Source of the DNA: Mobula hypostoma | Taxonomy: Eukaryota | Length of the DNA stretch: 64,000 bases | Reading direction: 5' to 3' | NCBI RefSeq assembly: GCF_963921235.1 | Contig: NC_086097.1 | Location: 48,424,001-48,488,000, forward strand | Shown here: positions 29,761 through 36,700 of the stretch, piece by piece | How positions within the stretch are numbered: the first letter of the stretch is position 1 | Layout: the number at the start of each line of letters is the position of its first letter | Notes under the pieces: generated by a model | Database searches by the model: none | The model's input: the letters and a program-made list of their open reading frames with translations, nothing else | Told to the model about the DNA's origin: nothing | Position numbers and translations under genes: made by a program

Positions 29761-30499
29761 TGGGCTGAATACCATCGCTCTCTTGCTTTGTACAGCTCTC
29801 TCAGTTTGTTCCTCTCTGTTGTCCTCCTACTCCTCTTTCATCAGCAGAGGGGGTGCAAATCCACCTAGCCATGGGCTTGAAGTATAAAATATTGCAGAAT
29901 GGAGTTGGGCTGTTGATCAAAGGAACAAAGTGCTTTGGATAATGCTGATATATGAACTTGATTCTTCAAGAAGTACATTTTCTTGCTTTCATTTTGGAAA
30001 TAACAAGGAACAATAAGGCCAACAAAACGCTGGAGGGGGACTTAATGTATTGAGTGGAAACGTAGTTAAATTGGAAGTAAACCTGACTCCAGGCTTTTCA
30101 TCTCCAGGTTCAAAAAAAGCTTTTTGAACACCTGTGAACATTTTTTTTCTACCGTGGACAGCACATCGGCAGCAGATTTCTGGTAATCACAGAAACTGAT
30201 GTTCTTCAGAGATGTTAATGAGCTTTATTATGTTTTATTTCACTTGCCTTCAATTTTAATATCTTCAGTCCTGGATTACAAGGTGAATGAATCGTACTGC
30301 AAAACAGGGGAGAGACTGAACTTCACATCACCTATGCAGTTACAGTTCTAATTGGTCCGTCAGACCAAATATTCAATTACATAACTCATGTCCAAATCCG
30401 AAACATAAAACATTGCAGATGCCATAAATCTGAAATGAAAACGTCAAGCACTGGGAATGGCAGCAAGTCCGGCAGAATCTCCAGAGAGAGAAGCAACCT

Positions 30500-30721
30500 T
30501 GACGAAAGGCCAGTGACCTTATCTCTATGAAATTTGTCTCTCCATTTAAAAGCTGGACTATTTAAATGCAAATAGCAGCATAGTTAGTATAGAGTATGTA
30601 TTGTAACTTCCCTGACAAAAGGTCAATGACCTTATCTCCATGAAATTTGTCTCTCCATTTAAAAGCTGGACTAAAATACAAATAGCAGCATAGTTAGTAT
30701 CACAATATGTAGTATAACTTC
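30500..30721. repeat. About 110-bp tandem duplication
   Basis: tgaccttatctcyatgaaatttgtctctccatttaaaagctggact...aaatagcagcatagttagtat...taacttc occurs twice. Confidence 0.9.
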
Positions 30722-33558
30722 AAAATAACAAACTAATTCAAAGGGAGACATAGGAGACTAAAAATGGGACTTACTTTGTGTCTTACTTTAAGTGAAGTGC
30801 ACATGTATCACATGGTAGTGTGATGATGTTTGCAATTCACATGTTTATACATATATAACCTGTAACAAATTATTGAAATGAACAAGAATGCTTCATCAAT
30901 TTCCAAGATTACTCGTATATTACTGAAATATTAAATACACAACATTCCTTCCTAATTAGTTATAAACTCCAACTCAATAGAGAATGCATCTCAATTATAT
31001 ACACAGTATACTATATCATATAACTACTACATGCAGATATTCACAGCAAAGTAAAATATAAATTGTCCCATTCAGACATAAAGATTTAATTGCCTTCCTA
31101 CCCTTGTGGGATAGCGCCTTTCCTGACCAGAGGGTTCAGTCTACTTTCAGGTGAGACTTGTGACTATGAAACCAATCTCAGGTTCTGGGGCCTCCTCTGT
31201 GGTGGTTGTAGGAGCTGACTCTGAGACTGCAGGAAGTGGTTCTGACAGCTCTGGCCACCTTTCTTCTCCTTTTCTTGTCTTTTCTCTCTCGATCTACTTC
31301 GACCCTTGCTTCTCTCCCAGTCCCAGCTTCTTTCTCTCTAGTTCCTGCTCTTTTTCTTCTTTTTAGGATGTGTATCTTGACCTTAGGAAGGTGCAATTAA
31401 TTCACAGGAGTATTTTCTTATTAATCCTTCTATTGTTCCCTTCATGATCAGATCTCTCCTCTTGGTTTTCACATCAACAAAATTATTTGACGATTCCTCT
31501 GTTTTCAGTCCTCCATTGACTCTTTTCTTTTTGGGCTTTGGTCTTTGCATCTGCTCTTACAAGCAGCTACTTATCTTCCATTTGAACTTCATGCAATAAC
31601 CTTAATGCACGCAGAGCAGATTCTTGTTCTTTATACTCACAAAAGCTCGCAACTTTCCTGAAGCTCCTTGAACTCCCTTGCAGCTTAAAACCAAGCCACA
31701 TTTCACAAATAACTGCCTGATTGACCAATCAGAAGCTTTCTCAGATATGTTGCCTATGGACCAATGCTTTTGTCAGTTTCATGTCTCCTTTGAGCAGCAT
31801 GGTCCTTCCTTGGTCCGATATGCTTTCCAACCAGAGGCACAGAAGCTGGCACTAACACCTCTGTGGGCAACAGTTCATGCTTGGAGACAGTTGGGGCACT
31901 GCCCGGTACCTTTCTTAATTTACTTGCAGACAGCTTCGTTGCAGAGGATGTGGCATGCAAATAGTGGATGGATCTCCAAATAAGTTGTAGTTATCTCAGC
32001 CAATCATGCCTCCACAATTGTGGTCCTCTTGTTTTTACCACATACAAGCTCAATGTGACTTGTTGGTTGTTGTATTTCACTGTTACAAATGCCATTCCCA
32101 CAGGAGTTACTTTTTTTCCAGTATAATTTCTTAGTTGGATATCTGCAGAATTCGGTTTGGTATTGTTGAAATGCCATTCAAACTCATTTTGTAAAATGAC
32201 TGAAACAGTTGAACCAGTGTCCAATCCCATTTTTGTTAATTTGCCATTCACCTCAGGCGTAAACCATATTGCTGGTCCATTGTTAGTTTTCACATTGAAA
32301 ATCTCAAGTCTAGCCTGACCTGTGTCACTCTCATCAATATCAGATTTTCACCATCAGCATGCTGATTAGTGCTCATTTTGAAACTGCAATTGACCTTTTA
32401 ACTTTTTCTCTTTCCTATGCGGTCCATTTGCTTTTGTCTGCCTGACATGCTTTTTGCATTTTCTTCAAGTTTTGTCTTTAAATCTGCATTAGTCTGGCAT
32501 ATGTGACCCCCTGCCACAACAGTAGCACAAGTTGTTTGTCCAGCCTGGTTTCGGTTTAGACATTGCAATTTTGTTCACACTCACTTTCATTCTTGATCGC
32601 AAATCAATTTTGTCTTTGTCTGCTGCTTCCTTTGATACAGCAATTTCAACTGTTCCTTTAAATGTAAGATGTGCTTCAGTTACGAGCCATTTTTAAATGT
32701 TTTCTTGTAAGACTTCACAAACTAAATGATCTCTAAGTGTATCATTAAGCCCATCATTGAACTGACAATGTTCAAACAACTTCTTCAATTTAGCCTCATA
32801 TGTTGCAATGGACACTCTTCCCCCCCGTCCTTTTAATTCTAATTATGAAGCATAAAACATTCTGCAATCAATAATGGTTTTGATTCTAAGTGTTCCTGCA
32901 TTACTTTCATGATATCAGCAAAGCTCATTTCTGCTGGATTGGTTGGAGCAGTCAAGCTTCACAACAAACTGAATTTCCTTAAACGCATTGCACTCAGCAA
33001 AATTGGTATTGATTTCTCAGTGGCTATTTCATTTGCTTTATACAACTGCTCAATTTGCTCAGTATATGCAATCCAGTTATTTGTTGTGTAATCAAATGCG
33101 TCTATCTTTCCGATGTAGCCAGCCATTTTTGCTCTTTTATTTATCACCCAGTACTTACTCTTTATGAACCTGTGAACTCTTCTATTTACTGCCTTTTTAA
33201 AAAACTCAACTATGCTGGGCTGTGTTTTTCACTTGCCATTCCTCACTGCGCTTTTTTTTAGTTTGAACATCTCTCTGCCCTTCAACCGGTCAGTTGTCAC
33301 CTTGGATTTGTTTTACAAATACCACATCACCACTGTTATAATTTGTAACTTCAAAACATTAAACTAATTCAACTAACTTCACGTTTTACTTTAAGTGAGG
33401 CGTACACCTATCACATGATAGCGTGATGAGGTACACAATTCACATATTTATAATAACAGTAATTAATAATCTGTAATGGATTATTGAAACAAACATGAAT
33501 GCTTAATCAAAAAATTACAAGATTACTGAAATATTACTGAAATAGTAAATACACAACA
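30708..33558 (-). mobile_element. Non-autonomous Ty3/Gypsy LTR retrotransposon carrying a captured host cDNA
   Basis: Two similar LTRs of about 230 bp (about 30708-30944 and 33334-33558, both ending aaatacacaaca). PBS-like tggtgatg next to the 5' LTR and PPT aggaaggaa next to the 3' LTR. gag (MAGYIGKIDAFD..W..YTEQIEQ, decayed zinc knuckle), protease (LDTGSTVSVI) and pol tail (ERRYPTRV). Confidence 0.9.
31269..31860 (-). pseudogene. RBM25: Processed partial retrocopy of RBM25 (RRM region plus a short RS/RE piece) inside the Gypsy element
   Basis: Minus translation VLVPASVPLVGKHIGPRKDH, GNISEKASD..IRQLFVKCGLVLSCKGVQGASGKL, FCEYKEQESALRALRLLHE, LLVRADAKTKAQ, TKRRDLIMKGTIEGLIRKYSCELIAPS, HPKKKKK is collinear with vertebrate RBM25 as I recall it. 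Contains stops, frameshifts and small deletions. Confidence 0.88.
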
Positions 33559-33703
33559 GAGGGTAAATATTCGGCTTGAGTAGTGGTGCATGAGGTGCAT
33601 GAGGAAGGGTTTCAGATTCCTGGGGCATTAGAACTATTTCTTGGGGAGGTGGAATCTGTACAAACTAGTTGATTCACACCTGGACAGGACTGGGGTCAAT
33701 ATC

Positions 33704-36700
33704 ATAAGAACATTAGGACATAAGTCATAAAAACAGAATTAGGCCATTCAGCCCATCGAGTCTACTCCACCATTCCATCATGGCTGATCCTGGAACCCAC
33801 TCAACCTCATACACTTACCTTCTCGCCATAACCTTAGATGTCCTGACTAATCAGAAAACTTATCAATTTTTGCTTTAAACGGCCTTGGCCTCCACAGATA
33901 TCCGAGGCAGAGCATTCCACAGATTCACTACTCCCAGGCTAAAAAAATTCCTCCTTACCTCTGTTTTAAATGCTTGCCCCTAATTTTTGAGGCTGTGCCC
34001 TCTAGTTTGGACAACTCCACCATAGGAAACATACTCTCTACATCCACCTTAACCAGTCCTTTCCAAATTCAGTAGGTTTCAATAAGATCACCAAGTATTC
34101 TTCTAAATTCCAGTGAGTACAGGCCAAAGCTGCCAAACAGTTCTCATATATTAACCTCTTCATTCCTGGAATCATCCTCCCAAACGTCCTCTGGACTCTC
34201 CACAATGACAGCATATCCTTTCTGAGATATGGGGCCCAAAACTGTTTGCAATACTCCAAGTGTGGCCTGACTAGTATCTTATAAATCCTCAGTATTATCT
34301 CCTTGTTTTTATGTTCTATTTCCCTTGAAATGATTGCATTTGCCTTCTTTACCACAGACTCAATCTGTAAATTAACCACTAGTCCCTGGCAGCCAACCAG
34401 AAAAGATCCCCTTTATTCCCACTCAATACTGTCAGCCATTCCTCTGTCCATGCCGGTATCTTTCCTGCAATGACATGGGATTTTATCTTGTTAAGCCACC
34501 TCAAGTGTGGCACCTTATCAAATGCTTTCTGAAAATCCAAGTAAATGACATCCACAGACTTTCCATTGGCCACCCTGCTTGTTACTTCCTCAAAGAACTC
34601 TAAAAGATTTGTCAAGTAAGATTTCTCTTTACAGATACCATGCCAAATTTGACTTAATTTATTATTGGTCTCCAGTACACTGAAACCTTAATGATCCTTA
34701 ATGATGGACTCCAACACTTCCCTAATCATTGAGGTTCGGCTAACAGGCCTGTAATTTCCTTTCTTTTGCTTCCCTACCTTCTTAAAGAGTGGAGTGACAT
34801 TTGGAATCTTCCAGTCCTCCTGGACCATGCCAGAATCAATTGATTCTTGAAAGGTCATACTTAATGCATTTACTATCTTTTCTTTTCAGAACTTTGGGAT
34901 GAAGTCCATTTGGTCCAGGTGACTTTACCACCTAAAGACTTTTCGGTTTACCTAGCATCTTTTCCTTTGTAATAGCACTGGCACTCACTCCTGCTCCCTG
35001 ACACTCATGGACCTCTGGCACACTGCTAGTGTCTTCCACAGAGAATACTGATGCAAAGTACCCATTAAGTTCATCTGCCATTTCTTTGTCCCCCATCACT
35101 ACCTCACCAGCATTATTTTCCAGTAGTCCAACATCAGCTCATCCCTCCCTTTTATTCTTTATATAACTGAAAAAACTTTTTAGTATCCTGCTTTATATTA
35201 TTGGCTAGTTTGCTCTCATAATTAATCTTTCCTTTCTTATGGATTTTTAGTTGTTTTCTTTTGGATTTTAAAAGCTTCCCAATCATCCAATTTGCCATTC
35301 ACTTTTGCTGCCTTATATGCCCTTTCCTTGGGTTTTATGCCGTTTTTAACTTTCTTTGTCAGCCACAGTTGCCTACCCCTACCATTTGAGAAATTCTTCC
35401 TCCGTGAACTATTACTTGTGAACTATTCCCAGAAACTTCAGCCATCCCTGCTCTGCCGTCATCCCCACCAGTATCCTCCTCCAATCCACTTGGGCAAGCT
35501 CTTCTCTCATGCCTCTGTAATTCCCTTTATTCCATTGTGATACAGATACATATGAGTTGTGCTTCTCTCTCTCATACTGCAGTATGAATTCAATCATAAT
35601 ATGATCACTGCCTCCTAAGGGTTCCTTTTACGTTGGGCTCACTAATAAGATCTGGGTTATTACACAACACCCAATCTAAGACAGTCTTTCCCAAGTAGGT
35701 TCAAGCACGTTCCTCTAAAAAAAACATCTCATAGGCATTCAACAACTACCCTCTCTTGCAATCTGACACCAACCTGACTCTCCCAGTCGCCTTGCATATT
35801 GAAGTCCTCCATTACAATTGTAACATTACCCTTATTTCCAGCTCCCTCAGCAATCTCAACCCCACATCTTGGATACTATTTGGAGGCCTATATATGTTTC
35901 CAATAATGTTTTGTTTTACCCTTGCAGTTTCTTAACTCCACCCACAAAGATTCGACATTCTGAGACCCTATGGCACCCTTTCTACACACCACCTCTGCTT
36001 TCCAGCCTGTCCTTTCGATACAAAGTATATCCTTTGATATTAAGCTCCCAACTATGACATTCTTTCAGCCACAACTCTGTGATGCCCACAACGTCATACC
36101 GACTAATCTCTAATTGTGCCATGAGTTCATCACCGTATTCCGAATGCTACATGTAGTTAAGTACAACACCTTCAATCCTGCATTCTTTGCCCTTTTGAAT
36201 TTTGCCTCTGTGGTACAGTTTAACTCTTTTCACAGTCTGCATTTATTCCCTATCATTGTCTTGTCCTTCCTTACATTCATGTTACACCCATCATCTTGTA
36301 ACTCTGCTGGCTCATCCTCAACGCTGTTATAATTGGTTCCCATCCCCCCACCATATTAATTTAAACCACTTCCAGTAGCTTTAGCAAACCTGCCCGCAAG
36401 GCCGTTGTCCCACTGGGATTCAAGTGCAACCTATCCCTTGTGTACAGGTCACACTTGTCCCAGAAGAGGTCCCAATGATCCAAAAATCTGAATCTCTGCC
36501 CCCGTTCCAATTCTTCAGCCACACATTTATCTGCCACCTCATTCTATTCCTATCTTCACTGTCGCATGGCACAGGCAGAAATCCCAAGAGTACTACCCTT
36601 GAGATCCTGATTCTCAGCTTTCTTCCTAACCGCCCCCCACCCCTGTATTCTGTTTTCAGGACCTCCTCCCTTTTTCTACCTATGTCATTGGTACCAATAC

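Follow-up and report, generated by a model that had tools for sequence, protein, structure and literature searches.

Spliced RBM25 sequence in the place of reverse transcriptase, RNase H and integrase in a non-autonomous Ty3/Gypsy family of Mobula hypostoma

In this study, we analysed a stretch of 64,000 nucleotides (nt) from Mobula hypostoma (contig NC_086097.1, positions 48,424,001 to 48,488,000), which as a whole is called the window here, and within it a Ty3/Gypsy long terminal repeat (LTR) element on the minus strand at 30708-33558. The element consists of two LTRs in direct orientation, a site resembling a primer-binding site (PBS), gag, protease (PR), the end of pol and a polypurine tract (PPT); apart from the PBS-like site, these features and their strand had been listed in an initial annotation made from the sequence alone, and every listed item is present. 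The last ~60 codons of pol have been retained, and the positions of reverse transcriptase (RT), RNase H and integrase are occupied by intron-free sequence of the host gene RBM25. Very probably, the locus represents a dead member of a non-autonomous Ty3/Gypsy family with a high copy number that goes back to one LTR-mediated retroposition event. Neither the window copy nor any of 29 further family copies, which were fetched for detailed comparison, has RT, RNase H or integrase, and since the element's own domains of this kind have been replaced by RBM25 cDNA, it is a non-autonomous derivative of Ty3/Gypsy (Metaviridae-type). The window copy itself is a dead relic.

Host RBM25 exons in the position of pol

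The proposal that the insert is RBM25 was confirmed both by protein matches and by blastn against the host's own gene. With the 56-amino-acid (aa) RRM open reading frame (ORF) at 31602-31772, 108 proteins were obtained at E <= 1e-3, all of which are RRM proteins, and nearly all source-named records among them carry the name RBM25; proteins with a matching RRM are called RBM25 in one shark and in many records from bony fishes, amphibians and reptiles. The same ORF gave a Pfam RRM_1 match (E 0.0033), and an RBM25-like protein of the sevengill shark aligned with the window in tblastn at E 7e-46. A PDB search with the RRM ORF was uninformative, as it returned generic RRM proteins only (best E 0.006).

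The window shares its contig (C1) with the host RBM25 gene, which is found 51 Mb away on the minus strand, with its exons mapped to 99791418-99840627. When the window element was compared with this locus by blastn, one block per exon was obtained at 80-93% identity and no intron sequence, and the host gene has introns at each exon joint. The window copy fuses pieces of eight host exons (Table 1), crossing the joints exon 2/Z, Z/A, A/B, B/C, C/D and F/G, and longer copies of the family also cross D/E and E/F. This comparison upheld the earlier view that the insert lacks introns, crosses several exons and lies in sense orientation. Its bounds, which had been put at 31860-31269, had to be corrected to 31897-31258; of the pol codons that had been placed before it, the pol linker stood, but 'APT' belongs to the end of exon 2, and 'VSKHELLPTE' represents a decayed cassette exon and not pol. 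Host exon 2 ends in GCCACAACT/gtaagt, and the host cassette exon (C1:99832586-99832633; L038) is flanked by ag and gt, is in frame and encodes VSMLYTMNRCPTEGKQ. This 48-nt exon sits between canonical exon 2 and the first RRM exon of host RBM25, a short RBM25-like isoform predicted for a sevengill shark (P0007) begins with the same exon, and the retrotransposon family has kept it as spliced in.

The two fusion points were located with autonomous-type relatives of the element. L052, together with L054, is such a relative from the same genome and runs from PR into RT, RNase H and integrase, a pol order that was seen in relatives only. From late gag to the joint (up to 31876) L052 and the window copy are 79.5% identical, after which L052 enters RT. 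At the 5' joint, L052 reads ..GGATGGTGCCACAGCAGTGTTC.. (D G A T A V F), the chimera ..GGATGATGCCACAACTGTCTCC.. and the host mRNA ..ACTCCTGCCACAACT/GTCTCC..; in the 5' switch zone L052 has ..GGTGCCACAGCAGTG.., and past the joint it continues with GCAGTGTTC.. (AVF.., the start of RT). The microhomology at this joint is the 7-nt sequence TGCCACA, which comprises the first 6 nt of the exon 2 piece and the preceding T and is common with pol; in our analysis, the nine nt before the cassette exon were at first taken as purely host-derived, a view that was dropped for microhomology once L052 was compared. The pol and RBM25 frames coincide at the 5' joint, in frame with Gag-PR. That this junction is in frame with pol had already been noticed in the initial annotation, and it is borne out by the comparison with L052 and by ORFs of at least 120 aa that span the joint in 6 of the 29 other copies.

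At the other end, the insert stops ~29 nt inside coding exon G, where it abuts pol sequence. In the autonomous-type relative L055, the tail follows the integrase C-terminus without a change of frame; from the 3' joint on, L055 and the window copy are 80% identical. The joint reads ..GTTAGAGAAAAAAGGTGTCCAGAG.. in L055 and ..GGAGAAGAAAAGGGATAGG.. in the host, and comparison of the two located the purine-rich microhomology, as had been suspected from the sequence, in the 6-nt AAAAGG. At this joint, one A of the host sequence is missing from most copies, in which the pol tail is therefore out of frame. Between the two fusion points ~2.6 kb of pol is missing, so that pol has been replaced and not interrupted. 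The tail encodes a conserved pol end, ..ERCYPTRVRKPPQRLNL in some copies.

The remainder of the coding sequence is of Gypsy origin. P0109, a Gag-PR protein of 652 aa from a characiform fish, aligned with the window in tblastn at E 1e-94 and 45-53% identity, with many in-frame stops, over gag, the CCHC knuckle, the protease and a short linker; the tail of P0109 matches 2 of the 29 family copies (E 2e-4 and 0.002). The protease motif LDTGS is present in the window copy and in family copies. The PR ORF of the window was compared with longer proteins and gave 76 candidates, none of them significant, and a profile search was used instead: a profile built on 13 translations of the PR-linker part, taken from the window and from copies of the family and with X for stops, gave 3,409 protein matches at E <= 1e-3. 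Among 17 checked matches, 11 have RT, RNase H and/or integrase domains, and in four (P0113, P0208, P0215 and P0258) Pfam found RVT_1, RT_RNaseH and rve in the Ty3/Gypsy order. P0109, which is the nearest public relative of the gag-PR part, is itself internally deleted (Gag-PR-(start of RT)-(integrase end)) and looks like a plain deletion derivative from a related Gypsy lineage. A possible resemblance between the linker and RBM25 exon 1 (score 32) was rejected, as the stretch is the conserved Gypsy ..LDWRSI.. linker.

It may be asked whether the RBM25-like segment is an old domain of the Gypsy lineage, or whether it moved from the element into the host. Beyond the shared sequence itself nothing speaks in favour of this, which we consider extremely improbable: RBM25 with this RRM is a named gene in many vertebrate records, the host gene has its introns at the very joints that are fused here, autonomous relatives have RT at that position, and the element copy holds the host's lineage-specific cassette exon.

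Table 1. Features of the Ty3/Gypsy element and of its RBM25-derived part in the window
Feature	Position	Strand	Basis or remark
5' LTR (TG...CA)	33334..33558	-	direct repeat of 30708-30944; family copies align from its start
PBS-like site	33316..33332	-	TGG start, one base past 5' LTR; read from sequence
gag with CCHC zinc knuckle	32348..33126	-	tblastn of P0109; broken by stops and one frameshift
Aspartic protease (LDTGS)	31991..32347	-	weak Pfam gag-asp_proteas match, E 0.0025
pol linker, protease to RT (..DWLR*LQLIWRSIHYLHA..KLRKV..)	31898..31990	-	homology to Gypsy Gag-Pol stops ~31886-31889
5' switch zone, formed by the final 9 nt of RBM25 exon 2 (family GCCACAACT, window copy GCCCCAACT)	31889..31897	-	
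RBM25 48-nt cassette exon Z, two small deletions	31859..31888	-	aligns to host C1:99832586-99832633
RBM25 exon A (pre-RRM and RRM start), 16-nt deletion	31710..31858	-	blastn, host idx 39166-38996, 80% including gap
RBM25 exon B (RRM)	31646..31704	-	blastn, host idx 37252-37194, 90%
RBM25 exon C (RRM end), 18-nt deletion	31511..31644	-	blastn, host idx 34407-34295 and 34277-34254, 86%
RBM25 exon D (..ELIAPS..HPKKKKK)	31351..31505	-	blastn, host idx 29424-29270, 86%
RBM25 exon F, last 52 nt (ER/RS-rich)	31288..31339	-	blastn, host idx 20402-20351, 90%
RBM25 exon G, first ~29-30 nt, and 3' switch zone (..GGAGAAGAAAGG/TG..)	31258..31289	-	blastn, host idx 19259-19230, 93%
3' pol end, integrase C-terminal tail (..PELSEPLPAVSES..ERRYPTRV..LNL)	31072..31257	-	80% DNA identity to L055
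Polypurine tract AGGAAGGAA	30945..30953	-	abuts 3' LTR; read from sequence
3' LTR	30708..30944	-	direct repeat of 33334-33558

Copies of the family, their decay and their surroundings

The suggestion that the window holds one copy of an amplified non-autonomous family was borne out by identical joints in most copies and by a count of both junctions over the whole genome. With a 751-nt query that covered the insert, 3,800 candidates were obtained at first look; the 40 that were scored showed 70-79% identity and were spread over many contigs. A 26-mer across the 5' joint was found 1,267 times at up to 3 mismatches (99 exact; reversed control 0), and a 23-mer across the 3' joint 783 times at up to 2 mismatches (control 2). 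The family copies have their own LTRs. The same 5' order, from the pol linker ..GGTACTGGATGAT to GCCACAACT, the whole cassette exon and exon A, is common to 26 of the 29 copies. At the 3' end, where five copies with matches under 80 nt were omitted from the alignment, 22 of the 24 aligned copies have the spliced F/G joint followed by ..GGAGAAGAAAG/GTGTCCAGAGC, a joint sequence that is also given as ..GAAGAAAG/GTGTCCAGAGC.

These numbers also bear on the idea that a processed RBM25 pseudogene made by a long interspersed nuclear element (LINE) was nested in one Gypsy copy and then spread by segmental duplication. LINEs are very abundant around the locus, and in two copies a LINE 3' end lies at the start of exon A. 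However, the insert stops inside a coding exon, and neither a poly(A) tract nor a target-site duplication (TSD), the marks by which a LINE-made retrocopy was to be recognised, is present around it; in addition, the flanking pol pieces are non-contiguous, and the 1,267 joint-bearing sites are dispersed over many contigs in copies that own their LTRs. We therefore regard a LINE-made pseudogene as very improbable.

Other copies are more complete than the one in the window. Exon E is present in 7 of the 29 (L014, L017, L018, L019, L021, L026 and L030) and upstream parts of exon F in 9 (L009, L014, L016, L017, L018, L021, L025, L026 and L030), and longer copies hold nearly all of exon F besides exon E. 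The jump from exon D to RSRSREK had been seen correctly, but is not original: since longer copies keep exons E and F, it is a later, secondary deletion in a purine-rich stretch, by which this copy lost exon E and the greater part of exon F. The ancestral insert comprised the last 3-9 nt of exon 2, exons Z and A to F, and the first ~29 nt of exon G, that is ~1.1 kb with eight exon joints.

Among the copies with other 5' ends, L015 (C73:9387874-9391384) and L025 (C45:85830441-85834136) have the complete 3' end of a CR1-like LINE abutting the first base of exon A, at the former cassette-exon/exon A splice joint. The two copies are colinear across this joint (67% over 1.6 kb), which therefore had a single origin and was copied afterwards, and which may reflect a nested insertion or a template jump; the 4 kb further upstream of L025 contain LINE pieces only. 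L003 (C62:50067396-50071076) has a duplicated pol-tail segment before the cassette exon in place of the usual linker/exon 2 joint and may be a variant or an intermediate subfamily.

The decay of the copies was compared over 699 coding sites of exons Z to E. Mean identity was 86.8% between copies and host gene and 82.1% among the copies. Differences between copies amount to 18.6, 17.2 and 17.9% at codon positions 1, 2 and 3, and the variants are equally flat among singletons (173, 172 and 166) and among those found in 2-5 copies (117, 112 and 106). From this flat distribution it follows that the copies decayed neutrally, by ~9% each. Variants in at least 70% of copies, by contrast, number 2, 0 and 18 (p 5e-7), and the branch from the host gene to the founder of the family is thus almost purely synonymous. 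We read this as a burst soon after capture, with most of the founder branch being constrained evolution of the host gene. The window copy agrees with the others in age. Its LTRs (225 nt at the 5' end, 237 nt at the 3' end) have 176 matches, 32 mismatches and 46 gap columns in a global alignment, or 84.6% identity over 208 ungapped columns, and a divergence of 32/208 sites fits the same age as the decay of the copies; this identity and the in-frame stops bear out its description as a decayed copy with diverged LTRs.

Parts of the stretch are contained in 20 of 24 runs, and contigs of four runs, from four other organisms, were compared with the window at a likeness of at least 88%. The boundary between flank and 3' LTR is bridged by X5 record 16 (30300-30933, 12 differences), X9 record 24 (30407-30931, 28 differences and 19 gaps) and X10 record 1 (30674-30855), and in X5 two further records span the boundary of the 5' LTR (record 22) and the 5' joint (record 19). 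With contigs of X5, X9 and X10 bridging flank and LTR, the insertion in the window is common to at least three other organisms and predates the split of at least four. Single RBM25-derived positions (31680 and 31817) are covered by 96-120 contigs in all four runs. In each of three runs, ~90 contigs leave the tail at 31268 with a continuation that by eye resembles the integrase end of L055, a weak hint that autonomous-type copies are also present in these organisms. Contigs of all four runs join LTR positions 30899 and 33516, skipping 2,616 nt, as paralogous solo-LTR forms would.

Directly upstream of the element, a decayed LINE with RVT_1-type ORFs occupies the minus strand of the window at 33560-36200, and in the contigs of all four runs no other stretch comes near its 3' end (33688-33808) in abundance. 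The 3' flank of the element contains a tandem duplication of ~110 bp at 30497-30700, with units 92-96% identical; a contig from organism D omits 30564-30673, and the duplication may therefore be younger than the insertion of the element.

Origin of the chimera

We infer that the chimera arose by template switching. Minus-strand DNA synthesis would have taken place in a virus-like particle, in which RT would have left the element RNA at AAAAGG near the 3' end of pol and landed on AAAAGG in exon G of a co-packaged, spliced RBM25 mRNA. It would then have copied this mRNA back through exons F, E, D, C, B and A and the 48-nt cassette exon into exon 2, of which the last 3-9 nt were included, before it returned to the element RNA at TGCCACA, just upstream of the RT region. 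In this way, ~2.6 kb of RT, RNase H and integrase sequence would have been swapped for ~1.1 kb of sense RBM25 cDNA in frame with Gag-PR. Because LTRs, PBS, PPT, gag and PR were retained, the chimera could have been mobilised in trans by autonomous relatives, and it would have burst to well over a thousand copies soon after capture, followed by neutral decay, with the window copy later losing exon E and most of exon F. The exon joints, the microhomologies and the replacement of pol support the capture of a co-packaged host mRNA by template switching, as the initial annotation had put it.

The joining could instead have taken place at the DNA level, where an RBM25 retrocopy or a broken cDNA would have been linked to a Gypsy copy by microhomology end joining or gene conversion and then mobilised. 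Microhomologies of 6-7 nt fit end joining as well as template switching, and the reverse-transcription step itself is unobserved here. However, this course of events would require two precise joints that left all cis signals, the sense orientation and the frame of Gag-PR intact; neither the 40 scored places nor the 30 copies included a free RBM25 retrocopy delimited by these end points, and the whole pattern resembles documented LTR-mediated retrocopies. We consider a DNA-level origin quite unlikely.

A number of observations weigh against template switching followed by amplification in trans, among them that microhomology is equally a mark of DNA end joining. Each of the two microhomologies depends on a single autonomous-type copy (L052 and L055), both of which are decayed, and another repeat interrupts L052 ahead of the end of pol. 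The autonomous-type fragments share the PR-linker (79.5%) and the tail (80%) with the family; no complete autonomous partner carrying this LTR was recovered among them. The flanks of the window copy (CCCTC and TATTG) do not match, so that no TSD is readable where the LTR end is blurred by decay, and 3 of the 29 copies (L003, L015 and L025) have different 5' structures. Finally, variants found in 6 copies up to 70% of copies are as flat over codon positions as the rarer ones (13, 12 and 13) and show no selection on the RBM25 frame.

It is conceivable, but in our view unlikely, that a Gag-PR-RBM25 fusion with its RRM and ER/RS-rich parts gave the chimera an edge that explains the burst, or that the RBM25 copies couple the silencing of transposable elements to host RBM25. 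If so, the edge might lie, for example, in binding of the element's own RNA for packaging or in steering particles to splicing compartments, and silencing by small RNAs might be coupled to the host gene through copies of RBM25 exons, sense and antisense, that number more than 1,000. The stem before the burst is short, codon positions 1 and 2 together account for 2 of its 20 near-fixed changes, and an intact fusion at the time of the burst is not contradicted by it; the synonymous founder branch is compatible with the fusion protein having mattered or not. When the joint-crossing ORF of L014 was used as a query for a predicted PR-RBM25 fusion protein among records of 124-396 aa, 88 matches were obtained, all with the RBM25 half only and at most 55% query coverage, and within this length range the records thus contain no fused protein.

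Relation to known chimeras and significance

LTR-mediated retroposition has been described as yielding internal retrocopies that replace the ORF sequence of an element between its LTRs and have no poly(A), TSD or introns; their fusion points have a median microsimilarity of 6 bp, and a double template switch in a virus-like particle has been put forward as the model (Tan et al., 2016, Genome Res, PMC5131818). The passages on secondary retroposition give at most a few copies of such chimeras; maize Bs1, which joins three genes, has 1-5 copies, and human HERV-K/FAM8A1 is a single untranscribed pseudogene. Capture of oncogenes by retroviruses through microhomology-guided switching is also cited there (PMC5131818). 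The RBM25 family resembles the chimeras presented in that text in its replaced ORFs, in the lack of introns, poly(A) and TSD and in short microsimilarity at both joints, and it shares with Bs1 and HERV-K/FAM8A1 the presence of host exon sequence inside an LTR element. However, the chimeras described there are single- or few-copy, whereas the RBM25 family has more than 1,200 joint-bearing sites and is common to several organisms, and as presented there neither Bs1 nor FAM8A1 is a thousand-copy family with an in-frame Gag-PR fusion. The mechanism of LTR-mediated retroposition by template switching is thus already known, and it is the copy number in a vertebrate that is unusual. No paper tying RBM25 to a transposon family was found in our literature search, which did not extend to Repbase and Dfam, where the family may already be catalogued.

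Replication-defective transducing retroviruses carry spliced host cDNA in an in-frame fusion with gag; they have lost pol and require a helper. These Gag-onc viruses are the closest functional analogy to the RBM25 family, as they combine a fusion of host cDNA and gag with pol loss and helper dependence; the RBM25 family differs in being a germline retrotransposon without env that carries a fragment of a splicing factor and whose success is measured in genomic copy number. Non-autonomous LTR elements with gag only or with no coding sequence are also known, mostly from plants, as TR-GAG, LARD and TRIM elements. Like the RBM25 family, they have LTRs, PBS and PPT without RT and integrase, are amplified in trans and can reach high copy numbers; however, they arise by internal deletion, whereas in the RBM25 family the lost part of pol has been replaced by host coding sequence.

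More than 1,000 scattered copies of splicing-factor exons can confound the annotation of RBM25 genes and the mapping of small RNAs. At the same time, the family is a clean natural record of vertebrate LTR-mediated gene capture, with switch points resolved to 6-7 nt and the donor gene in the same genome, and it is a fossil of the RBM25 splice form that included the 48-nt cassette exon at the time of capture. The outcome was a family of more than 1,000 copies and not a lone retrocopy, which shows that, as a non-autonomous element, a chimera with a host gene is able to out-replicate in the genome of an animal.

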